Shown here piece after piece: positions 1 through 14,352 of a DNA stretch of 64,000 bases. The notes under the pieces were generated by a model. The model had not been told where the DNA came from. It saw only the letters and a list, made by a program, of their open reading frames with translations, and made no database searches. This DNA is from a virus, in IMG/VR virus record IMGVR_UViG_3300034073_002585, positions 64,001 through 128,000 of that record. One strand, 5' to 3'. How positions within the stretch are numbered: the stretch's first letter is position 1; each line of letters starts with the position of its first letter. The position numbers and the translations under genes were made by a program.

Positions 1-263
1 TTCGTATGTTGGTCGTGGTGTCGGACGGAAACTACACGCCGAGCCAGACGGACAGAGCCAAGCAGATTCTCGCAGAGTGCCGACAGAGTGGCGTGGCGGT
101 TCTATGGATTACACCGAGAGGTTGCTACTCGTATGGTGCGAAAGACATTCTCGGAAGTTCGGCGTGGGGAGTTCACTTGGACGACCTAGACACCGCCGAG
201 ATTGCGAGGCTTGTCGGCAAGTCGGCGAGCGAAGCGTTAGCAAAGGTTGGTTCGCAGATGTAG
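1..263 (+). CDS. VWA-domain protein, C-terminal part (5' truncated by window)
   Basis: LVVVSDG motif followed by helix and GVAVLWI strand, typical of a vWA C-terminal half; the frame is open to the window edge. Confidence 0.6.
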   Translation, partial: RMLVVVSDGNYTPSQTDRAKQILAECRQSGVAVLWITPRGCYSYGAKDILGSSAWGVHLDDLDTAEIARLVGKSASEALAKVGSQM

Positions 264-354
264 TCGAGCCACAACGGATTGCCTAACCGAGAGGTTGAGC
301 GAAAGGTGATTACCCCCCTTTATCACTACTAGTTCCCAAACGGATAGGTAATAG

Positions 355-410
355 AAGCCCCCACAGCCAAGTGCTTCCCCCAGTCTTGGTTCGTGGGGGT
401 TTCGTCTTTT
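355..410 (+). terminator. Intrinsic terminator with C-rich loop
   Basis: GCCCCCAC..AGCCAAG / CTTGGTT..GTGGGGGT stem followed by T-rich tail. Confidence 0.7.
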
Positions 411-552
411 GACCCAGACCATTTTTTGACTGAAGGTGTGTATTTATTTTTTGTTACGACTTTTGAAAAAAGACTTGTTTTGTTTGCGAAACCTAGTAGG
501 ATTGGAGTATCCAATCAGGGACGAAATAGAAGTAGTCCCAAAAAGGGGAGAG

Positions 553-891
553 ATGACGAAAGTCACCAAAGCCCAGCCAGTCGGCTCAAAGACTGACACG
601 AAGGTAACTCGTAAGTTCGTTACCAAACTCAACGAGTTCGTTGAGGTTCGTTCTCTACAAAACCTCTACAAGAAGTTGGCTGACGAGGGTCGTGCCGAAA
701 TCTTCAACGAGGTGGGGGAAGCCGAGCAGGTGCTAATCCACAATGGCGTTCGGGTTGCGATTATCAGTAAGGTAACCAAGCCCGACATTGACAAGAAACT
801 TCTCGCCGAGAAGTATCCAGAGGCTTTTGCCGCTTGCTCAATCACTCGTGACGAGTTCCACATCAAGACAGCAACTCCGACCAAGAGATAA
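553..891 (+). CDS. Hypothetical protein, paralog of 8109-8474
   Basis: SD AAAAGGGGAG before ATG 553; IDKKLLAEKYPEAFAAC resembles IDEEKLAKDFPEAYEAC of the paralog. Confidence 0.8.
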   Translation: MTKVTKAQPVGSKTDTKVTRKFVTKLNEFVEVRSLQNLYKKLADEGRAEIFNEVGEAEQVLIHNGVRVAIISKVTKPDIDKKLLAEKYPEAFAACSITRDEFHIKTATPTKR

Positions 892-895
892 CCAG

Positions 896-928
896 AGAGG
901 GGGTTGGGCGAAAGCCCAGCCCCTTTTC
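896..928 (+). terminator. Intrinsic terminator
   Basis: GGGGTTGGGC-GAAA-GCCCAGCCCC-TTTT. Confidence 0.8.
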
Positions 929-1040
929 TCAAAATGCCGTTGTATTTATTTTTTGTATGACTTTTGACTCGCCGAGGCGTGCCGTAGAAAATGTCAGAGG
1001 TTAGTAGTAAATTGGTAGTAACAAGAAAGGGGGTTCTCAA

Positions 1041-1382
1041 ATGAGAGAGCCAGTAGCACTAGACCCAGTAGGCGTGGCAGGACTTAGCCTCACCATGATT
1101 GGAGTTCTCGTTGAGCAGTATGTAAGAGAGGGTTACGCCGACCCAACCATGTATCGGGCATTGAAAGGGGCAGGCGAACTAGCGGAACACCTACGGGAGT
1201 GGGTTATGTCAGAAGCACCAGACGAAACGGAACTGCTTGACGGCGTGACCGACTTACTTATGAACCTAGAACTTACCGCTATGGAGTGTGGCGAGGTCGT
1301 AAACCGAATCATTGACGAACACGGCTTGCCTGTTGATAAAAAGTCGTGGACACGGCTTGACATTGACGGCACGCAGGACTAA
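1041..1382 (+). CDS. Hypothetical protein
   Basis: 113-aa ORF with SD AAAGGGGG. Confidence 0.8.
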   Translation: MREPVALDPVGVAGLSLTMIGVLVEQYVREGYADPTMYRALKGAGELAEHLREWVMSEAPDETELLDGVTDLLMNLELTAMECGEVVNRIIDEHGLPVDKKSWTRLDIDGTQD

Positions 1383-1392
1383 GGTGGTAGGT

Positions 1393-1686
1393 ATGAAGTT
1401 CTATCAAGCACTCGGCGAGGTAATCAGAGAGCAACGGCTTGCCAAAGAGATGACCCTTCGTGATGTAGCCCAGACGGGTTATGTTTCTATGGGACACCTG
1501 TCAGATGTGGAGTGTGGACGGAAAGAGGGTTCTTCCCAGTTCATTCACGCAGTTGCTAACGGCATAGGCATAGAGCCTCACGAACTAATTTTGAAGGCAG
1601 GTTTCAGAATGGCAGACCTGACCATTCCAGATACACCAGAAAAACTTTTATTGGGCGATTCGCAATTCGAGACAGCCAGACTCTAG
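1393..1686 (+). CDS. XRE-family HTH regulator, ClgR-like
   Basis: ALGEVIREQR..TLRDVA...VSMGHLSDVECGRKEGSS follows the actinobacterial ClgR pattern (TLREVS..VSLGYLSEVERGRKEASS). Confidence 0.8.
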   Translation: MKFYQALGEVIREQRLAKEMTLRDVAQTGYVSMGHLSDVECGRKEGSSQFIHAVANGIGIEPHELILKAGFRMADLTIPDTPEKLLLGDSQFETARL

Positions 1687-1702
1687 AAGTCTGAAACCCA
1701 AA

Positions 1703-1733
1703 GACCCTAGCGAGTGGAAACGCTAGGGTTTTT
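1703..1733 (+). terminator. Intrinsic terminator
   Basis: ACCCTAGCG...CGCTAGGGT-TTTT. Confidence 0.8.
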
Positions 1734-1873
1734 GCATTTCCAAATTTTCTTGTTTGGCGTGTATTTATTTTTTGTTTGGCTTCCAATCGCTTTTGATGAA
1801 AATGTCTGCCAATCCTGATAGAGTTTTCTTGTTGGGAGTTCCAAGTGTGAACTACAACAGAAAGGGGTAGCAG

Positions 1874-2221
1874 ATGAGCAAGTCTGCTTTTTTGATTCGA
1901 GAGGATTTTTCTTTCGAGCGTTTGGAGTTAGAGGGCAACACCTTGAAGGTGTTACAGAGTGCCGTTGATGGCTTGATTCAACCTGTTGATTTGAGCGACA
2001 GCCTGACTGTCTGGGTAAATGAAGAGGGGCTATTCAGAAATGATTTTGATGTGAACCTTTTTGCTACTGCTATTTATCACCAAGCATTTCCGACTGCGGA
2101 TAACCCACTTGTAGGCCCTGCCGTCTTTACAGGTGGTTCTGATGATGAGGGCAACACCCTCGGATTGAGCGAGCAGATGATTGCCAACCTAGCGACATGG
2201 GCTCTGGCTCTCGCCAAGTAA
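1874..2221 (+). CDS. DUF3846-like protein
   Basis: LQSAVDGLIQPV..VWVNEEG..N..AT..LVGPAVFTG..DEG.T.GL pattern. Confidence 0.7.
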   Translation: MSKSAFLIREDFSFERLELEGNTLKVLQSAVDGLIQPVDLSDSLTVWVNEEGLFRNDFDVNLFATAIYHQAFPTADNPLVGPAVFTGGSDDEGNTLGLSEQMIANLATWALALAK

Positions 2222-2235
2222 CACAGAGGTAAGAC

Positions 2236-2266
2236 TGCCCCCGCTTCGGCGGGGGTTTTCTTTTTT
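2236..2266 (+). terminator. Intrinsic terminator
   Basis: GCCCCCGC-TTCG-GCGGGGGT-TTTCTTTTTT. Confidence 0.85.
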
Positions 2267-2389
2267 CCGTTTTTTGTGCGGGTAGCGTGTATTTATTTTT
2301 TGTATGAAGTTTTTATGAAATGCCGACAATAAACTTGATAATGTCAGAGTGCCGTGCTTTACTAGAGGTATCCAAGAAAAGGAGAGGGA

Positions 2390-2632
2390 ATGTTCAGTAA
2401 CTATCCAGAGGGTTCAATGCGAGGCTCGGGTATCTATTCGGTTGAGGTGTCTTATGACGCTTTCGATTGCGAGAACGAGGAGTGCGGACAGCACAACGAG
2501 GCTGGCGATACTGCGACTGATGACTGGGGACACTACACGATTGAGTGCGAGTTCTGCGGAGTGACCTACACAGAGAGCAGTCTGGCACAGGACAAAGATG
2601 ATTACTACGCCGACTATTCCGAGGACAGGTAG
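2390..2632 (+). CDS. Acidic Zn-ribbon-like hypothetical protein
   Basis: SD AAGGAGAGG; CENEEC...CEFC. Confidence 0.75.
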   Translation: MFSNYPEGSMRGSGIYSVEVSYDAFDCENEECGQHNEAGDTATDDWGHYTIECEFCGVTYTESSLAQDKDDYYADYSEDR

Positions 2633-2640
2633 GGGCTAAA

Positions 2641-2781
2641 ATGGCAACGCAATACGAATACGAATGTCGCTCTTGTGGAAGTGCGGTTTGGCTAGACCAA
2701 GAACAGCACGACCACTACGAGAGCAACAAAGAAAAGGGAAGCGGGTTCACAATGCCAAAGTGCGCCGACTGCTGGAAATAG
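2641..2781 (+). CDS. 46-aa Zn-ribbon protein (not in ORF track)
   Basis: MATQYEYECRSCG...PKCADCWK*; SD AGGTAGGGG upstream; fills the gap between neighbours. Confidence 0.7.
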   Translation: MATQYEYECRSCGSAVWLDQEQHDHYESNKEKGSGFTMPKCADCWK

Positions 2782-2792
2782 GGAGAGGAAAA

Positions 2793-2993
2793 ATGACAAC
2801 AACGACCCGCTACTGCTGGAACTGCGAGGAAGAACTAAACGCCGAGAACACAGGTTCTTATGGTGGGTTCGATTCAAGCAACCACTACTATTCAAGTATC
2901 TATGGCGGAGATGGCGACACAGCGCCGTTCACAAAGTGCGACTCTTGTTTTGATGCCGACAACGACAGATATCTAGAGAGCCTTTACGAGTAG
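2793..2993 (+). CDS. 66-aa Zn-ribbon protein
   Basis: SD GGGAGAGGA; CWNC...CDSC. Confidence 0.7.
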   Translation: MTTTTRYCWNCEEELNAENTGSYGGFDSSNHYYSSIYGGDGDTAPFTKCDSCFDADNDRYLESLYE

Positions 2994-3137
2994 GCAATAC
3001 CAAAGATTTACTGCCCAATAATTCTGTGCGGGACACAGAGTTGGGCAGTTTTTTATTGCCGATTTTTGGCGACTATTTTTTGTTCTTCGAGTGTATTTAT
3101 TTTTTGTTCCAGGCTGCCGAAACTTTTTACTAATGAT

Positions 3138-3166
3138 TTGACTTCGCCGACCAAACCTAGTATCTT
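3138..3166 (+). promoter_or_regulatory. sigmaA-type promoter
   Basis: TTGACT-17 bp-TATCTT, about 30 bp after the box at 3092. Confidence 0.6.
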
Positions 3167-3206
3167 TGTAAGTGTCAGAAAGACACAGAGTGAAAGGAAT
3201 CCAGAA

Positions 3207-3476
3207 ATGGAAACGACAAAAGAAGTAATCAAGGCTAGACTCATGGAGATTGAGGAGCGCCAAAAAGAACTGGCACAGAGTCGCCGAGAGATGGCACTAG
3301 ACATGGCTGTTGAAGTTGGGACAGACGAGCTAGTTGGTATCAACCTTGACTCACTATCAAAGTGGGCAAGAAGAATTAGGAAAGTCAATACAGAGATGAA
3401 AGTTTTGGCAGACGAGCGCCGTTGGTTGAGAGAGAGCAGACGCCGACTCAACCCTTGCGAGTGCGACTGCCACTAA
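3207..3476 (+). CDS. Coiled-coil hypothetical protein
   Basis: SD GAAAGGA, ATG 3207; heptad-like charged sequence. Confidence 0.75.
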   Translation: METTKEVIKARLMEIEERQKELAQSRREMALDMAVEVGTDELVGINLDSLSKWARRIRKVNTEMKVLADERRWLRESRRRLNPCECDCH

Positions 3477-3490
3477 GGTTAGTCCCCCCT

Positions 3491-3534
3491 AACCCCCGCC
3501 CCCGTCAGAGAAATCTGGCGGGGGTTTTCTTTTT
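3491..3534 (+). terminator. Intrinsic terminator
   Basis: CCCCCGTCAGA-GAAA-TCTGGCGGGGG-TTTTCTTTTT. Confidence 0.85.
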
Positions 3535-3672
3535 GTCGTTCGTTGAATTTTTCATTGAGAGCTGTACAAAAAATAAATACAAGTAGGTAGCACAATAATT
3601 TTTGCTGCCGTGTTTCTTTTGTTTTTCTTCTTTTTACTGCTATACTTGATGTAATCAAGAAAGGGGGACACA

Positions 3673-3972
3673 ATGTCCACAAGCACCACCACCGCCCGCA
3701 ACGAGTTTCTTTCCGCCGTATGCGAGCCACTACGCACCATCACTAGCGAGAACCTCACCAAGAGCGCATGGGTAGCTGGAGTTGAAATCATTGCTCTGGC
3801 AAATCGCCTTGCCGACCTTGAGGTTTCCGTAGAGCTTCTAGAGAACGAAATCAAGCTAGGCAACCTCCACTTCGCCGTTGATGGTCACAACTGGAGCGAC
3901 TACGCAAAGGTTTACAACAACAACTTTGTGGAACTGTGCCAGTTGCTACGAGCAAGAAGGCTTGCTAAGTAG
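3673..3972 (+). CDS. Hypothetical protein
   Basis: SD AAAGGGGG; extended -10 TGCTATACT upstream. Confidence 0.75.
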   Translation: MSTSTTTARNEFLSAVCEPLRTITSENLTKSAWVAGVEIIALANRLADLEVSVELLENEIKLGNLHFAVDGHNWSDYAKVYNNNFVELCQLLRARRLAK

Positions 3973-3987
3973 TATCCAAAACACCAA

Positions 3988-4017
3988 GCCCCCTGTTTCG
4001 GCAGGGGGTTTCTTTTT
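3988..4017 (+). terminator. Intrinsic terminator
   Basis: GCCCCCTG-TTTCGG-CAGGGGGT-TTCTTTT. Confidence 0.8.
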
Positions 4018-4151
4018 GCCGTGACGAGAAAGTCTCCCTCTTTCTGTGTGTATTTATTTTTTGTCCAGGACTTCAACATGCCGACAACTTTTTGTCAAAA
4101 TGTCTCTTATGGGTGCTATGCTCTAAGTAACCAAAGAAAGGGGACAACCAA

Positions 4152-4328
4152 ATGGTTGGAGTAGGGCAGCTACTAAGTAGCTTGAATTTGAATGTGATTG
4201 CGAGCGCCGTAGAAGGCGAGACAACAGTTCCTTGGACTCTTTTGTTAGAAGATGAGGAATTCCTAAAGATAGCAAAATACGCCAACACCTTACAAGAGGT
4301 TGTTGACTGGGTAAACGAGAACTACTAG
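4152..4328 (+). CDS. 58-aa hypothetical protein (not in ORF track)
   Basis: SD AAAGGGGA then MVGVGQLLSSL...DWVNENY*. Confidence 0.7.
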   Translation: MVGVGQLLSSLNLNVIASAVEGETTVPWTLLLEDEEFLKIAKYANTLQEVVDWVNENY

Positions 4329-4335
4329 GGGGTGA

Positions 4336-4539
4336 ATGATGAGCGTAAAGTATCCAGAGATTGAAGTTCAACTTTCGGGAAATGATGGAAATGCTTATGC
4401 GATTATGGGGGCGATACAGAAAGCCCTACGCCGAGCAGAGGTTCCACAACACGAAATTGAGCAATACCTAAACCAATCCATGAGCGGAGACTATGACAAC
4501 CTTTTGCGGGTTGCCATGAATTGGGTGACAGTTCACTAA
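4336..4539 (+). CDS. Conserved small phage protein (GNAYAIMG...SGDYDNLL family)
   Basis: L.G.DGNA..I.G....AL...SGDYD.LL motif familiar from phage/plasmid small proteins; function unknown. Confidence 0.75.
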   Translation: MMSVKYPEIEVQLSGNDGNAYAIMGAIQKALRRAEVPQHEIEQYLNQSMSGDYDNLLRVAMNWVTVH

Positions 4540-4552
4540 TCAAACCAAAGAC

Positions 4553-4586
4553 AAACCCTCGCAAAGTTGCGGGGGTTTTTCTTTTT
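4553..4586 (+). terminator. Intrinsic terminator
   Basis: AAACCCTCGCAA..TTGCGGGGGTTT-TTCTTTTT. Confidence 0.8.
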
Positions 4587-4704
4587 CCCGTGATAATTTC
4601 GGCGCTCGCCGTATGTATTTATTTTTTGTCTAGCTCATCAGCAACAGATTTGCGGTTTATGTGTGTGCCGTGTTAGGGTATGAGTATCAAGAAAGGAGTT
4701 CCCT

Positions 4705-5091
4705 ATGGGAGCAAGAACAGTTTGGGAGATTCGGACTTATTCCGACAGGCCCTCTATTTATCTATACAGCCACTGGGGTGGCGACACTAAGTGGATTGAC
4801 ACAGTTCAAGCCTTAGAGCAAGCTAGATTCCGCTGGGATGACCCGAGTTATGGAGCAAGGATTTTCATTAGCCAGATTGTTGGAAGCCAATGGGACCTAG
4901 AAACAGGATTCGGTATCACTGCTGGAGATTCTGGAGAAGTTCCATTCGAGGAGAGCTATTTCAATGCGGTAATAGATTTCTCATCAAAGACAGTGACCCT
5001 AGGAGAGCACCTATACACTTTCGAGGAGTTTGTGTCCGCCGATGACATTACTGAACAGCTTGGCAATGAGTTCTGGGAGGTTAGCGCCTAA
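4705..5091 (+). CDS. Hypothetical protein (IYLYSHWGG motif)
   Basis: SD AAGGAG; MGxR...YxHWxG N-terminal motif. Confidence 0.75.
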   Translation: MGARTVWEIRTYSDRPSIYLYSHWGGDTKWIDTVQALEQARFRWDDPSYGARIFISQIVGSQWDLETGFGITAGDSGEVPFEESYFNAVIDFSSKTVTLGEHLYTFEEFVSADDITEQLGNEFWEVSA

Positions 5092-5375
5092 TGGGTAATC
5101 TACAAGCTCAAGAAATGGCGGCGCTCACTGACCTTGACATAGCGCTAACTTGGCACCTGCGGTCGAACCACTATCCACCCGTGCCGTTGACAATGCTTGA
5201 ACCATGTAAACAAGCGATTGACGCTTACTGGGAAGATGACCTAGATAGGCAGATTGACTTGAATGGAAGTTTCTACAGGGGCGAACCTTTTGCCCCTGCT
5301 AGAGAGATTATTATCGCTCATCACCTAGACGCTTGGTGTGAGGGCGAGGAAGAGGAGTTCGACGATGCCGATTAA
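5091..5375 (+). CDS. Hypothetical protein (WHLRSNHYPPVP motif)
   Basis: Translationally coupled (TAATG) 94-aa ORF. Confidence 0.75.
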   Translation: MGNLQAQEMAALTDLDIALTWHLRSNHYPPVPLTMLEPCKQAIDAYWEDDLDRQIDLNGSFYRGEPFAPAREIIIAHHLDAWCEGEEEEFDDAD

Positions 5376-5763
5376 GGATAAGGAGAAATACAATGCTTAC
5401 ATGCGGGAATACAACAACAGAACCTATGCCCTTAGGTGTGACAAGTTCCGAGCCCAATTAGGCAACAAGTGCACAAAGTGCGAGAGCACAGATAGCCTAA
5501 ATTTCAGTGGCACCACCCCGCTAGGTAAGTCTTTTGATTTGTCGCGCCGAATGACTAGTGCACCAATGAAAGACTTGCAAGAGCTTTTTGACAACAGCAA
5601 CTACACGCTATTGTGCAACAAGTGCCTAGCAAAGCAAACCAAAGGCGTAGAGCATGGAGGAGGTATTTCTGGCGTGCGGAATTGTAAGTGCGATTTGTGT
5701 AAAGCTAAGAAAGCCGAATACATGCGGAGCTACATGAAGAAGAAACGAGCTACAATAGACTAG
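5365..5763 (+). CDS. HNH-like Zn-binding protein, probably catalytically degenerate
   Basis: LGNKCTKC...LLCNKC...HG..SG..NCKCDLC layout of actinophage HNH proteins. Confidence 0.65.
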   Translation: MPIKDKEKYNAYMREYNNRTYALRCDKFRAQLGNKCTKCESTDSLNFSGTTPLGKSFDLSRRMTSAPMKDLQELFDNSNYTLLCNKCLAKQTKGVEHGGGISGVRNCKCDLCKAKKAEYMRSYMKKKRATID

Positions 5764-5786
5764 CCAAAGCAATGTCGCTTGGCTAT

Positions 5787-5870
5787 TGCTAGAGATTTTG
5801 TCCCCCCTTTCTCTCTAGCATGCGGGTTACAACTTTCCCCCCTTTAGTTGTAACCCGCTTTTTCTTTTTT
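5787..5870 (+). ncRNA. 6C-RNA-like tandem hairpins with C6 loops; the second hairpin doubles as terminator
   Basis: TGCTAGAGA[TTTTGTCCCCCCTTTC]TCTCTAGCA then GCGGGTTACAACT[TTCCCCCCTTT]AGTTGTAACCCGC + T tract. Confidence 0.5.
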
Positions 5871-5944
5871 GTCGCCTGCTTTTTCTCTTCCGTTGAGTGT
5901 ATTTATTTTTTGTTCAACTTTAGCCACGCCGTCAAATAAAGTGC

Positions 5945-5972
5945 TTGACTAATTTGACAGGACTGGTAGGCT
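5945..5972 (+). promoter_or_regulatory. sigmaA-type promoter
   Basis: TTGACT-16 bp-TAGGCT; the following TATTACATCAGCCAA is shared with the promoter at 7422. Confidence 0.65.
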
Positions 5973-6014
5973 TATTACATCAGCCAAAAGGTTGGTAAAA
6001 GGAAAGGGGACAAA

Positions 6015-6230
6015 ATGTTCACACTAAGAAGGTTCGCAGGTGCAGTAATCACCATGCCAATCGTGTTCGGTATCTATGCGGTTATCTACTTTGGTCTAGG
6101 TCTAGTAGCAAACAGCTACATGAGTATTGGACTATTCACCCAAAACCTATACGCCGTTGGATTCGGCTGGGTGATTGCGGTTACATTCGCTAAGCAGTTC
6201 TTCAACCTAATCGAAAAGCTAGGAGAGTAA
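6015..6230 (+). CDS. Small membrane protein (2 TM)
   Basis: Two hydrophobic segments; SD AAAGGGGA. Confidence 0.75.
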   Translation: MFTLRRFAGAVITMPIVFGIYAVIYFGLGLVANSYMSIGLFTQNLYAVGFGWVIAVTFAKQFFNLIEKLGE

Positions 6231-6232
6231 TA

Positions 6233-6385
6233 ATGGAAAACATCATTGAAGCAGTGCTACTAATCGGAGTAGCGTTCATTCCAGTAGGAGCGTTCTTGCT
6301 AGGGTTCGTAGTCGCCAAGATTTCTAATGGTGGTGGTAACCCGAAGGGTCGTCACGCCAAAGGTCGTGGCAGACACGCCAAGTAA
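6233..6385 (+). CDS. 50-aa membrane protein with basic GRHAK-repeat tail (not in ORF track)
   Basis: SD AGGAG; MENIIEAVLLIGVAF...GRHAKGRGRHAK*. Confidence 0.7.
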   Translation: MENIIEAVLLIGVAFIPVGAFLLGFVVAKISNGGGNPKGRHAKGRGRHAK

Positions 6386-6394
6386 GTTCCACCG

Positions 6395-6430
6395 AAGCCC
6401 CTCGCAGAAATGTGGGGGGTTTCTTTTTTT
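6395..6430 (+). terminator. Intrinsic terminator
   Basis: AAGCCCCTCGCA-GAAA-TGTGGGGGGTTT-CTTTTTTT. Confidence 0.8.
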
Positions 6431-6566
6431 GCGGGCAGCCTCTTATTTTTTTGTTTTTAGGTTGTATTTATTTTTTGTCTAACTTCAGACACACCTGCCG
6501 ACTTGATTTGCGATTACGGGTAGGAGGCTCTAAGCTATTACTAAGAACAAACAGGGAGGGGCAGAA

Positions 6567-6815
6567 ATGCTAAACAGACCAGACCAAGAGGCAGAGCTAA
6601 TCTTCGCTATGGTGATGAAGCTAGGCGGAGAGCACAACTACTCAGAGCACACCAAGGCTACGATTTGGGCAGAGTGTAATCGTAACCCTAAGCTACGCAA
6701 CCTAGCGTTGCAGTATCTAGCTGGGTCAAGCAACAGGGCAGACCTAAACCTGCACCGACTACACACCGAAATTGTGGAAGTATTCTTCCCTGAAGTAAAG
6801 GAGTTGATTGGCTAA
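6567..6815 (+). CDS. Hypothetical protein
   Basis: SD GGGAGGGG; promoter TTGCGA-17-TAAGCT at 6508-6536. Confidence 0.75.
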   Translation: MLNRPDQEAELIFAMVMKLGGEHNYSEHTKATIWAECNRNPKLRNLALQYLAGSSNRADLNLHRLHTEIVEVFFPEVKELIG

Positions 6816-6961
6816 TGGCTATCACGATTACAGAACTTACGACTTGCTACCAATGCGAGCGACCAATTATGGCACCGAAAGATTCAGTTCACCCGCTATG
6901 CGAAATTTGTGACCAGGGTTTTGACGAGTGGTTCACTAAGCAGTTAGGTATGTTCAAGTGA
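6815..6961 (+). CDS. 48-aa Zn-ribbon protein (not in ORF track)
   Basis: Coupled TAATG start; CYQC...CEIC; ends in GTGA overlap with next gene. Confidence 0.7.
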   Translation: MAITITELTTCYQCERPIMAPKDSVHPLCEICDQGFDEWFTKQLGMFK

Positions 6962-7272
6962 TTGAGTTTGAGCAGAAGTATTCAACGCCGAGAGCACAAA
7001 GGCAGTATGAGCTTGAAACTCTAATCAAGCACTATGAAGTTGAGCGTGCCGAGAACATTAGGCGACTATTGTTTTCGATTGGAGTTGGTTTTGCTTATGT
7101 TCTACTTATGGGAGGAGTTATAGGTTATGGAACTTTTGCTGGAGGCTATGCCGTATTAGGTTGGCTGTCAGTAATTACAGTTGGGCTATTCATAGCTGGC
7201 GAGTTTGTGAAAGTCAATGCCGAGCTTAGTCGCCCAAACCTCAACCACCCAGAAAGATTTATACAGAGTTAG
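6958..7272 (+). CDS. Membrane protein (2 TM)
   Basis: Two hydrophobic helices. Confidence 0.7.
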   Translation: MIEFEQKYSTPRAQRQYELETLIKHYEVERAENIRRLLFSIGVGFAYVLLMGGVIGYGTFAGGYAVLGWLSVITVGLFIAGEFVKVNAELSRPNLNHPERFIQS

Positions 7273-7294
7273 TCCCCCCTAACACCCCCCCACG

Positions 7295-7338
7295 CCCCCG
7301 CTAGGTTTCTGAACCTTTCCTAGCGGGGGTTTTCTTTT
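7295..7338 (+). terminator. Intrinsic terminator
   Basis: GCCCCCGCTAGG...CCTAGCGGGGGT-TTTCTTTT. Confidence 0.85.
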
Positions 7339-7421
7339 ACCTCGAAAGCACCTCGAATTTTTTTGCGGGAGGGTGTATTTATTTTTTGTCTAGTTGTTGC
7401 CGACACGATTGGTAAAAGGAT

Positions 7422-7449
7422 TTGACAAATCTAAATAAGGTGCTAGGCT
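7422..7449 (+). promoter_or_regulatory. sigmaA-type promoter with extended -10
   Basis: TTGACA-16 bp (ending TGC)-TAGGCT. Confidence 0.7.
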
Positions 7450-7494
7450 TATTACATCAGCCAAGGTGGTTGATACAAAGAAAAGGGGTAAAAA

Positions 7495-7791
7495 GTGAAC
7501 AGCAGGACTTACGAGAACATTCAGGGGATTGGAAGCTGGGTAGCTTTCCTAGCTACTGGAGTGGCTTTCCCATTCAGCTTGGAGTATGCGGGATTGATTG
7601 ACGCAATGAGCGCAGACCTATACACCGAGGGTAGGGCGATGATGTTCCTAATCATTGTGGTCAGCATTTCAATTCTGGCAGTAACCCTAGCGGTCAAGGC
7701 TGGACTATCTTGGGCAGAATACAAGTGGTATTACCGCCAAGACCTAGCACAGAAGCTACACCGCCTAGCAGACAGGATTGCCAAGCGATGA
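7495..7791 (+). CDS. Membrane protein
   Basis: SD AAAAGGGG, GTG start, 2 hydrophobic segments. Confidence 0.7.
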   Translation: MNSRTYENIQGIGSWVAFLATGVAFPFSLEYAGLIDAMSADLYTEGRAMMFLIIVVSISILAVTLAVKAGLSWAEYKWYYRQDLAQKLHRLADRIAKR

Positions 7792-7898
7792 AGCAACTAG
7801 CCAAGAGGGTTGAACCCTTGGTGCTGGAAGTTCTGGCAGTTGTCGTCTTGCCGAGGATTGCTGGAGCAGTAGCCAAGAGGTTAGCCAAAACTAAATAA
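7788..7898 (+). CDS. 36-aa hypothetical peptide
   Basis: ATGA overlap with previous gene; ends just before terminator. Confidence 0.5.
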   Translation: MKQLAKRVEPLVLEVLAVVVLPRIAGAVAKRLAKTK

Positions 7899-7907
7899 GA
7901 AGTGAGG

Positions 7908-7939
7908 AAGCCCCCGCCAAGTGCGGGGGTTTTTCTTTT
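7908..7939 (+). terminator. Intrinsic terminator
   Basis: AAGCCCCCGC-CAAGT-GCGGGGGTTT-TTCTTTT. Confidence 0.8.
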
Positions 7940-8016
7940 GCTTGCCGTTGTGATTTTTGCTGTTGTTGGGTGTATTTATTTTTTGTTCAAACTTTCAACA
8001 CGATTTTGAAATAGAT

Positions 8017-8045
8017 TTGACAACTACTAATCCACCCCCTAGACT
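8017..8045 (+). promoter_or_regulatory. sigmaA-type promoter
   Basis: TTGACA-17 bp-TAGACT. Confidence 0.75.
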
Positions 8046-8108
8046 GATTACATCAGTTCAGAAGTAGAGCTGATAACCGAAACTAGATAACTACAAAGGG
8101 GAGACGAA

Positions 8109-8474
8109 ATGTCCACAATTACTAAAGCAGTAGCAAAGGCTGAGCAGGCACAGGTTGCCGAAGGCAAAGCCACCAAGCGAATCGTAGATGCGGTCAAGGA
8201 GCTAGTAGAGCTTAGGGCTGAAATCGCAGAGCTTGAGAAGCGTAAGAACTCACTTACCGCAGAGCTAGAGCAGGTGTTCGGTGTAGACAAAGAAGCCAAG
8301 ACTTCAAAGCACACCACACTTACCTACCACGGTGTAGATGTTGTTCGCTACGAATGGCGCAAGCGTAAAGGGATTGACGAGGAGAAACTAGCCAAGGACT
8401 TCCCAGAAGCTTACGAAGCTTGCTACAAGGCAGACAAGACCGTATACGGCTTGATAGTGTCACTGTTCAAGTAA
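8109..8474 (+). CDS. Hypothetical coiled-coil protein, paralog of 553-891
   Basis: SD AAAGGGGAG; shared C-terminal IDxxxLAxxxPEAxxAC. Confidence 0.8.
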   Translation: MSTITKAVAKAEQAQVAEGKATKRIVDAVKELVELRAEIAELEKRKNSLTAELEQVFGVDKEAKTSKHTTLTYHGVDVVRYEWRKRKGIDEEKLAKDFPEAYEACYKADKTVYGLIVSLFK

Positions 8475-8481
8475 ACCGAAA

Positions 8482-8513
8482 GACCCCTAGTCAGAAATGG
8501 CTAGGGGTTTTTT
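8482..8513 (+). terminator. Intrinsic terminator
   Basis: ACCCCTAGTCA-GAAA-TGGCTAGGGGT-TTTTT. Confidence 0.85.
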
Positions 8514-9243
8514 CATTTCTGGCACAGTGCCGTAGTTAGTTAGAGGCTATACAAAAAATAAATACAGGTATGCCGTTCGAGTATTCTGCCGTGATTGCTC
8601 ATTGAGTCAGGTGAAGTTGTTATGCCGTAGATGGTTATACCCCCATAGCCCTAACCATTGAGGGGGGTGTAGCTGTCCCCTACAAGCCTTAGAGCCCGTA
8701 GCAGACCCACTCCCCAGACATAAGTAGGGCAAAGTCTCTAACCCACCACCTAAGTCTGTCTGCCGTAAAGCTGATAAATGCCCCTAAGAAGTCATAGAAG
8801 CTCTTTAAAGGGCATTGGCACTCTTATCTATGTCCCAGACAGGTAAAAGCTTTCTAGGAGCAACCTAGACCCTTATAGCTACAACTTATGAACTCACTCT
8901 TATTCGATGTCATAGCTAGACCTTGACTAGAAGCATTAGCTAGTTGTCTAGGCACTCTTTGACAGGTTTTTTCAATACCCCCTAGACAAGACAAGGAGTT
9001 TGTCACGACATTCTTGGCAGGCATACCCCCTAGGGTATGGAAACAATCTGGAAGGCACCATTTCACAACCGCTGCCCTCTCACCCGCCAAAAGCAGTCAA
9101 CGCTAAGGTACTAAATCTTCCGCTACGGACACCCCCTCTTTTTTGAAAAACTACCCCACCCCCCTTTCTAAAATGCCCTAAAAATTTCCAAAAATTTTTT
9201 AAAAAAATAAACGCCCCTATTTTTACCCCTTAAAATAGAATCC

Positions 9244-11942: not shown

Positions 11943-12170
11943 ATGCAAACAATTGAAGAGCTATATCACAAGGACATTCATCAGGAAAGATTTGCTATGC
12001 TTGTTGCTGCAAGGGTAAACGAAATCCTGTCTGGAACTGCCGCTGTTTTGGAATTTCCAAAGGCTGGTGGCGTGTTTAACACTCCAGAGGAAGAAGTCCT
12101 ACTATTCGCAGATGTAATCGCAAGAGTAGTCTGCGCAAACCTAAACCAAGGAGAGGAAATCGTTGAGTAA
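11943..12170 (+). CDS. Hypothetical protein
   Basis: 75-aa ORF between HTH gene and katG. Confidence 0.6.
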
Positions 12171-14352
12171 CTACGACGTAAACGACAGCTCTGCTGCCAA
12201 GTGCCCAGTTCCGCATGGAACTGCAGGAGGAGCGTCCGCAGAGATGGGAACAACTAACAATGACTGGTGGCCAAACCAGATTAGTGTTGACCCGCTACTA
12301 AAGGGTAACCCAAAGAGTGACCCGTACGAAGATGACTTCGACTACGTTGAGGAGTTTAACTCCCTGAACTTAGACGAGCTTAAGGCAGACATTGTTGCCT
12401 GCATGAAGGACAGCCAGCCTTGGTGGCCAGCAGATTACGGACACTATGGTCCGCTATTCATTCGCATGGCTTGGCACTCAGCTGGAACCTACCGCGTAAG
12501 CGACGGCCGTGGCGGTGGAGGCGAAGGTCTACAGCGTTTCGCTCCGCTTAACAGCTGGCCAGACAACGTAAACCTAGATAAGGCTCGCCGTCTACTATGG
12601 CCAGTCAAGAAGAAGTACGGCCGCAAGATTAGCTGGGCTGACCTAATGATTCTCGCTGGTAACGTTGCTCTTGAGGACATGGGCTTCCCAACCTTCGGGT
12701 TTGCTGGTGGACGTGCAGACGTCTGGGAGCCAGACAACACTTACTGGGGCAACGAGACCGAGTGGCTAGCCAACAAGCGTTACGAGCCAGGCCGCGAAGC
12801 TGACTCTCTAGAGGACCCGCTAGCTGCTGTACAGATGGGTCTTATCTACGTAAACCCAGAGGGTCCAGATGGCAACCCAGACTTCAAGCTGGCTGCTGCT
12901 GACATTCGCACCACCTTTGCCCGCATGGCCATGAACGACGAGGAGACTGTTGCTCTGATTGCTGGTGGTCACGCCTTCGGTAAGACTCACGGTGCTGGAC
13001 CTGCAGACCAGGTTGGCCCAGAGCCAGAGGCTAACGACAAGCTAGAATCTGTTGGCCTTGGCTGGGAGAACTCTCAGGGCACTGGACATGGCGCTGACAC
13101 AATCTCCTCTGGTCTAGAGGTTACCTGGACTCCTAACCCGACCCGCTGGGACAACGACTACCTACGCCTCATCTACAAGTACGAGTGGGAGCTAGAAGAG
13201 TCTCCTGCTGGTGCAAAACAGTGGCGTCCAGTAAATGACGAAGTATATCCAGAGGACGTGGCTCCACACGCCCACAACGAGGGTGAAATCGTCATCCCTC
13301 GCATGCTGACTACTGACCTTGCTCTCCGCTTCGGAGACGAGGAGTACGACCGCATCAGCCGTAAGTTCCTAGAGGACTTCGACTACTTCACTGACGTCTT
13401 CGCTCGTGCGTGGTTCAAGTTGACCCACCGCGACATGGGACCACGTGCACGCTACCACGGTCCAGAGGTTCCTCAGGAAGTTCTACTGTGGCAGGACCCA
13501 GTTCCATCTAGCGTTGCTCCAACTGTTCTACAGAAGCAAATGACTCGCATCAAGCTAGACGAGGCTGGTCTAACAATTCCAGCACTTGTTCGAGCTGCAT
13601 GGGCGGCTGCATCAACCTACCGCAACACTGACAAGCGCGGTGGAGCGAACGGTGCACGCATCGCTCTAGAGCCACAGCGTAGCTGGCCAATTAACGCTCA
13701 GGTTAATGGCATTATCGACGAGCTAAAGAAGATTCAGCCAGAGTCTGGCATGTCTCTTGCTGACATCATCGTGTTTGCTGGTGGCGACGCAATTGAGCGT
13801 GCTGCAAAGAACGCTGGAGTTCCAGTTGTGGTTGACTTCCTTGGAGGTCGCGGTGACGCAACTCAGGAGCAGACTGACGTTGAGTCCTTCAACCACTTGT
13901 ACCCAGTTGCAGATGCATTTGTTAACTGGAGCCACAAGAAGTATGCAGACTCGCTAGACCGTCTACTAATCGACAAGGCAACCCTTCTAGGGCTGACCCC
14001 TCCAGAGATGGTTGCTCTGTATGGTGGACTACGCGCACTAGGTGTTTCAACCAACGACCACGGCGTACTTACAGACCGTAAGGGCGTCCTCTCTAATGAC
14101 TTCTTTGTCAACATTCTTGACATGGACATCGAGTGGAACCCAGTACTAGATAACCTGTATCAGGGACGCGACCGCAGGACTCAGGAAGTCAAGTGGGTTG
14201 CATCTCGTGCAGACCTAGTATTTGCATCTAACTCAATTCTCCGTGCTTACTCAGAGGTTTACGCTTCTGACGACGGCCTAGAGAAGTTCGTGACTGACTT
14301 TGTCTCTGCATGGACCAAGGTCATGAACAACGACAGGTTCGATGTAAGATAG
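12163..14352 (+). CDS. katG: Catalase-peroxidase
   Basis: [88 protein letters not shown]. Confidence 0.98.

Follow-up and report, generated by a model that had tools for sequence, protein, structure and literature searches.

What is the role of two adjacent hairpins, each with a run of six C in its open loop, at the end of an early phage transcript? This question was raised by a viral record of 154,192 bp with direct terminal repeats, from which bases 64001-128000 were analyzed (this whole 64-kb stretch is called the window, and positions refer to it unless another genome is named). The portal protein of the phage is 70% identical to that of the Actinomycetia phage DSL-LC01 and approximately 60% identical to those of Microbacterium phages, which places its host among the actinobacteria. 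The phage also carries a full-length gene for the catalase-peroxidase KatG (window 12163-14352). A blastn search of window 5000-7000 against deposited phages gave no match.

The sequence-only reading of this locus had described two adjacent perfect stems of 9 and 13 bp, each exposing a C6 loop, and the coordinates, the predicted fold, and the count of the loop sequence TCCCCCCTTT bear out this description. The module consists of the following parts:

5761-5785, plus strand: H0, a small imperfect hairpin (-10.4 kcal/mol, z -3.3)
5787..5820, plus strand: H1, a perfect 9-bp stem (arms 5787-5795 and 5812-5820) with a 16-nt loop (5796-5811)
5822..5858, plus strand: H2, a perfect 13-bp stem (arms 5822-5834 and 5846-5858) with an 11-nt loop (5835-5845) that holds a C6 run
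5859..5870, plus strand: the U-tract of the intrinsic terminator, in which 11 of 12 bases are T

H0 overlaps the TAG stop codon (5761-5763) of the HNH ORF 5338..5763, and in the loop of H1 the C6 run is followed by UUUC. RNAfold of 5755-5885 gave exactly H0, H1, and H2 at -46 kcal/mol (z = -8.9), and none of 200 shuffled sequences folded as well. Folded separately, the energies of H1 and of H2 with its tail were -10.7 kcal/mol (z -4.9) and -21.8 kcal/mol (z -9.8), respectively. The window has exactly two copies of TCCCCCCTTT (5801 and 5836), each within one of the loops, compared with 0.12 copies expected from shuffled sequences. A scan for viral contigs that hold this loop 10-mer twice gave nothing but low-complexity matches and unrelated repeats.

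Two other ways of reading the same bases were rejected. On the minus strand, the loops would be G-rich and could serve as SD-like sites together with a 10-codon mini-ORF; that strand has neither a promoter nor a T-run, and the C-loop hairpins are without exception oriented like the genes. The second was a 39-aa ORF (5820..5939), which lacks an SD and whose start lies within the H1 stem. The tetranucleotide CTAG was seen in many cassette-end hairpin stems (e.g., CTAGAG, GCTAGG, and CCTAGC), with examples at window 1706-1729, 5787-5820, and 7294-7330 and in the L024, L025, and L021 hairpins, which belong to different phages and non-orthologous sites.

The module lies in an early-gene cassette array that covers window 1-8600 and 7 kb upstream of the window. 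The parts of a cassette come in the order of a strong intrinsic terminator, an invariant 16-mer box, a sigma-A-type promoter, a short leader, and one to three small ORFs. The box opens each cassette and has 17 copies genome-wide. The box copies in the window and the features around the module are as follows:

439, 941, 1760, 2288, 3092, 4049, 4614, 5898, 6463, 7374, and 7971, plus strand: copies of the 16-mer box
3566 and 8551, minus strand: copies of the 16-mer box
4705..5375, plus strand: cassette genes of 128 aa (4705-5091) and 94 aa (5091-5375), whose transcript ends in the hairpin module
5338..5763, plus strand: HNH endonuclease gene (phrog_4234, E 5.8e-14)
5898..5913, plus strand: the 16-mer box that opens the next cassette
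5945..5972, plus strand: inferred promoter of the next cassette (TTGACT, 16-nt spacer, TAGGCT), by analogy with the promoter upstream of 7495
6000..6016, plus strand: SD and spacer in the leader of ORF 6015..6230, with which the H1 loop is predicted to pair best locally

The HNH gene overlaps the 3' end of the 94-aa gene and sits between the cassette genes and the hairpins. The inferred promoter at 5945..5972 was absent from the output of a consensus promoter scan. Related but distinct versions of the box were found in relatives: the phage G001 has 25 copies of a 14-mer ending in TTATTTTTTCT, and the phage G002 has more than 30 copies of a box whose first 14 bases are common to that of the window. 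This indicates that the cassette architecture is a feature of the clade. A scan of viral contigs for the 16-mer box itself gave only single chance matches, in AT-rich contigs. A conserved small hairpin (ATCAGCC..GGTTGAT-like) opens several leaders directly downstream of the inferred transcription start (window 5980-5997 and about 7440-7460, and in G001 the leaders after boxes 12227, 12607, 20231, and 20652), and it is common to different phages.

The earlier suggestion that the element is made from a cassette 3' end was confirmed, with H2 in the terminator position of the cassette unit. By its modeled fold, H2 with its T-run is the intrinsic terminator of the cassette, a point absent from the earlier reading: a stable GC-anchored stem is followed by a U-tract at the end of the transcription unit. 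We assigned this function because the distance from the end of the H2 stem to the 16-mer box is 40 nt, compared with 32-40 nt for other cassette terminators, and because the energy of H2 (-21.8 kcal/mol) is similar to that of the cassette terminators at 6394 and 3498 (-22.7 and -23.9 kcal/mol, respectively). A consensus terminator scan missed H2 because the loop limit of the scan was 8 nt. No sigma-70-type promoter upstream of the module was found in the promoter scan; a lone TACAAT at 5751-5756 has no -35 element.

Such a terminator may need no further function. The module could be a terminator and 3'-end stabilizer only, which stops transcription and blocks 3' exonucleases, and its C-loops would then be partnerless and inert, for example because RNases cleave them poorly or because they are remnants of the GCCCCC arms that many terminators of the array have. 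We consider this explanation unlikely. It agrees with the equality of H2 and the other cassette terminators in energy and position, and G5/C5 tracts are the usual stem material in the array. However, most terminators in these arrays have loops of 4-5 nt such as GAAA or UUCG, so that an 11-nt C-rich loop and an additional upstream hairpin are unnecessary for termination.

The comparison with related phages also bears on this point. Using tblastn synteny, we found homologs of the 128-aa and 94-aa genes in G001 (locus L021/L042) and in the L024 contig, where the homologs of the 128-aa gene have 53-56% amino acid identity. The same double hairpin stands directly 3' of the cassette-gene homologs in both, without an HNH gene. 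Therefore, we believe that the HNH gene is an insertion in this phage, which looks like a homing-type one, and that the module is older than the HNH gene. The HNH gene was rejected as the carrier of the module: an HNH homolog at locus L002 is followed by tRNA genes, without hairpins.

In G001, hairpin 1 has a 9-bp stem with a CTAGAG core and a 12-nt loop with C6, and hairpin 2 has a 12-bp stem that differs throughout, a 12-nt loop with C5, and a T-run after it. The L024 module resembles that of G001. The CTAGAG stem core and the C-loop of H1 are kept in both relatives. The H2 stems of the relatives are wholly different in sequence with the pairing kept, and their loops keep C5-6 with U flanks. 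Judged by sequence, conservation of the module at the orthologous site extends to at least two uncultured related phages. The sequence-only reading had made itself dependent on loop conservation in relatives, and this conservation was found. Both loops have retained their C-runs although the stems were completely replaced and protein identity is down to 53-57%, which argues against a mere stabilizer with inert loops.

A covariance model built from the window sequence alone recovered the G001 and L024 copies at E values of 1e-7 to 1e-5, as well as two further copies in G002, a third phage. In an alignment of the five best sequences, which was fitted to the structure and mixes orthologous and non-orthologous copies, 95% of the cells pair, compared with 30-46% after sliding of the partners, and both sides have changed in 19 of the 22 pairs. 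The alignment shows double hairpins with freely varying stems, not a single evolving lineage. Besides the orthologous module, approximately ten tandem C-loop hairpins were seen at the ends of other cassettes in three relatives, on the transcribed strand only. In a census, tandems ending in a T-tailed terminator numbered three in G001, four in G002 (one of them triple), and two in L024, and all hairpins of the array region with a stem of at least 7 bp and a loop of C5 or more also lie on the transcribed strand. In more distant contexts (L277-L280 and L287), C-loop hairpins stand after a gene homolog or act as terminators. Since the stems within one genome are mutually unrelated, a recently spreading repeat is unlikely. 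What is conserved, at the level of sequence comparison, is the loop motif and the architecture, and the C-rich loops are very likely under selection. In the nearest deposited phage, DSL-LC01 (57% GC), the gene homolog is followed by just one hairpin, whose loop reads ACCCCUC, and no copy of the 16-mer box was found. A single hairpin with a GCTAGAG stem start, a C7 loop, and a T-run was also seen between genes at 3897-3931 (minus strand) of L023; L023 and L027 are two viral contigs of 41-43% GC from phages without a shown relation to this phage.

With which sequences could the loops pair? The sequence-only reading had claimed that part of the H1 loop is the exact reverse complement of the SD-to-ATG region of the next cassette. 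This was confirmed: ATTTTGTCCCC (5795-5805) is exactly complementary to 6006-6016, which spans SD to ATG of ORF 6015..6230 and is the only 11-nt complement of the H1 loop in the window. The chance of a match of at least 11 nt in the next 300 nt was 0.27% for fully shuffled loops and 2.3% when the C6 core was fixed. A second fit claimed at 3661 was retained in part: the loop does pair at 3661-3670, but one C must be bulged, because the loop has C6 and the site has G5. Exact 10-nt complements, AGAAAGGGGG, lie at 1024 and 3658. Nine of the ten complements of at least 9 nt in the window fall in cassette leaders, and no complementary site of at least 8 nt was found in the cassette's own mRNA.

The leaders themselves are unusual. 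Cassette-first genes in three phages have RAAAGGGG and then an A-rich spacer. Examples in the window are as follows:

1024-1040, 1859-1873, 3658-3672, 4135-4151, and 6000-6014: GAAAGGGG-type leaders

Internal and downstream coupled genes have GGAG-type SDs according to a crude gene caller, and by the same crude gene calls AAAGGGG is present in 9 of 14 leaders of this genome, compared with GGGG-type SDs in approximately 6% of other genes. The SDs of the GAAAGGGG type make a G.U wobble with 16S rRNA. The H1 loop with its closing bases is the antisense of the leader consensus GAAAGGGG..ACAAA, from the SD to just before the start codon. The 3' half of this loop, CCCCCCUUUCU, is the anti-SD tail of 16S rRNA, CCUCCUUUCU, with U changed to C; the tail sequence was present in three of five Actinomycetes genomes checked. 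The conserved UUUC flank of the subclade lengthens the complementarity to the leaders, which an inert stabilizer would not need.

Predicted energies point in the same direction. The duplex energies of the H1 loop with the 14 leaders, other start regions, and random sites were -13.9 (mean), -6.0, and -3.8 kcal/mol, respectively, values that overstate binding because a hairpin loop engages only part of the predicted duplex. The loop is predicted to bind more tightly than the anti-SD tail on 79% of the leaders and 37% of other starts. At the leader 6000-6016, the predicted energy was -18 to -21 kcal/mol for the H1 duplex, compared with -12.5 kcal/mol for the anti-SD tail. The predicted opening cost was 0-0.4 kcal/mol for the loops and 2-3.6 kcal/mol for the SD region. 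The earlier idea that the loops are complementary to the array's own SD sequences is thus upheld as far as predicted accessibility and the match to G-rich SD leaders go. By predicted pairing, the loops have what defines the class of anti-SD RNAs, namely an accessible C-rich sequence complementary to the SDs of defined targets. In an exploratory test of 11 elements in three phages with heuristic leader calls, the leader of the next cassette was the favored partner (mean normalized rank 0.29, p = 0.007), and the cassette's own leader was a poor one (mean normalized rank 0.67, p = 0.03).

Part of this pairing signal is trivial, because any U-flanked C-run complements any strong actinobacterial SD, and the leaders also bind the anti-SD tail well. 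Some relatives speak for the inert stabilizer. L277 and L280 have C-loop hairpins, that of L277 right behind the homolog of the 128-aa gene, yet their leaders are of the GAAAGGA type, and their loops are without the UUUC flank. Counts of C-loops and GGGG leaders at 66 related loci showed no significant association (rho 0.11, p 0.38; Fisher p 0.08). In G001, the cassette with the module has a G5 leader itself. In view of these three observations, the C-run may serve another target, either a protein or, as for 6C RNA, host G-tracts, and the match to the leaders may be a peculiarity of this subclade.

Our best explanation, to which we assign a probability of 0.42, is that the element is a 3'-terminal RNA module of the early cassette (genes 4705-5763) whose loops pair with GAAAGGGG leaders; anti-SD pairing with these leaders is the best-supported mechanism, at about 0.4. 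H2 with the U-tract is its terminator, and H1 and H0 are extra 3'-UTR hairpins. The open C-loops would pair with the unusual GAAAGGGG SD leaders of cassette-first genes. We speculated that the loops can out-compete 30S binding, because a G-C pair would replace the G.U wobble of the ribosome. The module might act in cis, as a translational insulator on read-through transcripts that extend into the next cassette, or in trans, with stable 3' fragments damping early-gene translation. By analogy, the design would resemble that of 6C RNA or of S. aureus RNAIII, whose hairpins 13 and 14 have C-rich loops. A wider version, which we put forward tentatively and regard as rather doubtful, is that the uncultured actinobacterial phage clade runs a distributed, self-encoded anti-SD system through CCCCCUUUC terminator loops. 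In such a system, the first gene of each early cassette would have a GAAAGGGG site that pairs with 16S rRNA only through a wobble, and the open CCCCCUUUC loops of several terminators would bind this site more tightly than the ribosome. Read-through or a build-up of 3' fragments would then automatically shut off the early genes that follow, so that the terminators would double as a built-in translational insulator or timer, having converged on the design of host 6C RNA.

The resemblance to 6C RNA raised the question of membership in this family, for which a search by the Rfam 6C model had been named as the check. The result was negative. RF01066 gave no match at the gathering threshold (47 bits) in the window and none at E <=10 in 5650-6000; it also gave none at E <=10 in the whole phage and none at E <=5 in the arrays of the relatives. 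The same model was above the cut-off in 86 of 151 Actinomycetes genomes, a tally that includes five unpublished genomes (G022, G031, G039, G043, and G050), whose sequences were otherwise left unused. Sub-threshold Rfam matches (lactis-plasmid, E = 3; ftsZ-DE, E = 0.17 on a relative) were treated as chance. The conserved second stem of 6C, in which GACGACCCCCGC pairs with GCGGGGGUCGUC in most members, is absent from the phage stems. Among the papers of the library searched, none linked 6C RNA to mycobacteriophages. The likeness of layout that had been proposed does hold against 30 real 6C RNAs: in these, the hairpins measure 10-12 bp and 13 bp, the loops hold C6-C11, the second stem is conserved, and the tail is weak. 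Two adjacent hairpins with approximately six or more C per loop were found here as well, with C6 in H1 and H2 and C5-C6 in the relatives. In the reverse direction, the phage-derived model R2 scored one real 6C (that of L134) at 33 bits, and its best match in the genome G157 was the 6C locus of that genome. Among the 151 Actinomycetes genomes, R2 had matches in three, all weak, and it found nothing in five small Actinomycetes genomes. No host copies were found in the genomes searched, and the likeness to 6C is one of design and not of detectable descent.

The four smallest genomes sampled (G017, G046, G062, and G076; 1.4-1.7 Mb) had no 6C match and very few first-look candidates. They may represent streamlined, probably low-GC actinobacteria without a recognizable 6C.

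The shared layout leaves room for a 6C mimic directed at the host, in which the loops pair with G-rich host mRNAs that are 6C targets and reprogram replication or division during takeover; the phage leaders would then not be the main target. We think this improbable. The layout almost equals that of real 6C, with its C6-8 loops on stems of 10-12 bp and 13 bp. Phages whose leaders are not G-rich have kept the C-runs as well, and R2 does reach the two 6C sequences named above. 6C acts without a chaperone (PMC6486639). However, the low-GC small genomes tested matched neither 6C nor the phage model, and KatG gave no clue to a host, being ~60% identical to proteins of many phyla with no host signal and no clear donor. 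It is the phage leaders specifically that the loops fit, through their U-rich flanks and their antisense match to the spacer of the leader.

A protein might read the loops instead. The C-loops could be recognition sites of an RNA-binding protein that tunes termination, read-through, or processing, like nut/boxB or put, and three mini hairpins with C-rich loops, which sit 2-30 nt upstream of terminators, suit this idea:

305..327, plus strand: C6-loop mini hairpin upstream of a cassette terminator
3477..3494, plus strand: C-loop mini hairpin just after a stop codon and before the terminator 3498-3525
7268..7283, plus strand: the same kind of C-loop mini hairpin, 16 nt long, before the terminator at about 7294-7330

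Conserved loop sequence with free stem sequence is typical of protein-bound hairpins. However, the sites of one protein seldom differ in loop length as much as those of the census do (5 to 16 nt), no protein was identified as a candidate binder, and the extended antisense match to the leaders is left unexplained. We give such sites a low probability, much as for a host-directed mimic. Capture of a true 6C homolog from a host chromosome with later divergence is very improbable: it would account for the common architecture and for the weak detection of two 6C loci by the phage model, but not for the silence of RF01066 on the element, the phage, and the relatives, the missing hairpin-2 stem (GACGACCCCCGC and its partner), the match of the phage model in so few genomes, or the multi-copy placement of the module at mRNA 3' ends.

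If the C-loops do act on the leaders, as in our preferred explanation, the phage would carry a riboregulator built into its transcription terminators. Some 17 early cassettes in tandem could then be insulated or timed by simple means that involve RNA only, and the odd GGGG-type ribosome site of these cassettes would be explained. The chaperone-free C-loop/G-tract logic of 6C would also extend from actinobacterial chromosomes to their viruses. On a more modest reading, there is a conserved loop motif of terminator hairpins across several uncultured freshwater-type actinophages, an RNA family absent from Rfam.

Compared with ordinary intrinsic terminators, H2 has the same GC-anchored 13-bp stem and U-tract, and it differs in its 11-nt conserved C-rich loop and in the extra C-loop hairpin upstream. 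With 6C (RF01066; B11 of Mycobacterium), the module shares adjacent hairpins of ~10 and 13 bp, C-runs of approximately six or more in open loops, and the actinobacterial lineage common to 6C and the phage host. The loops of 6C pair with G-rich RBSs such as AGGGGGG of panD, for which no chaperone is needed (PMC6486639). In contrast to 6C, the phage stems are AU-richer and not conserved in sequence, and the loops are U-flanked and mimic the 16S tail. Moreover, the phage module has a strong U-tail and stands at an mRNA 3' end in several copies per genome. 6C is a stand-alone small-RNA gene with its own promoter. The phage module is a 6C analogue and not a 6C member, and it forms a separate phage-specific family.

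Other bacterial RNAs use C-rich sequences against SDs. In RNAIII of S. aureus, the C-rich loops of hairpins 7, 13, and 14, including that of the terminator hairpin, pair with target SDs and block translation. The module would be similar by analogy in having C-rich loops that include the terminator hairpin's own; RNAIII is a large, separately transcribed bacterial regulatory RNA, whereas the phage element is only the short tail of a transcript and recurs at the ends of cassettes. For the icaR mRNA (PMC3868564), a UCCCC motif of the 3'-UTR is reported to pair as an anti-SD with the SD region and to repress translation. It acts on its own 5' UTR, whereas in the phage the own leader is among the poorest partners and that of the next cassette among the best. 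The RsaE/RoxS sRNAs of Firmicutes use unpaired C-rich motifs as anti-SD seeds. They differ from the phage module in that they have another fold, belong to another phylum, and are encoded by stand-alone genes.
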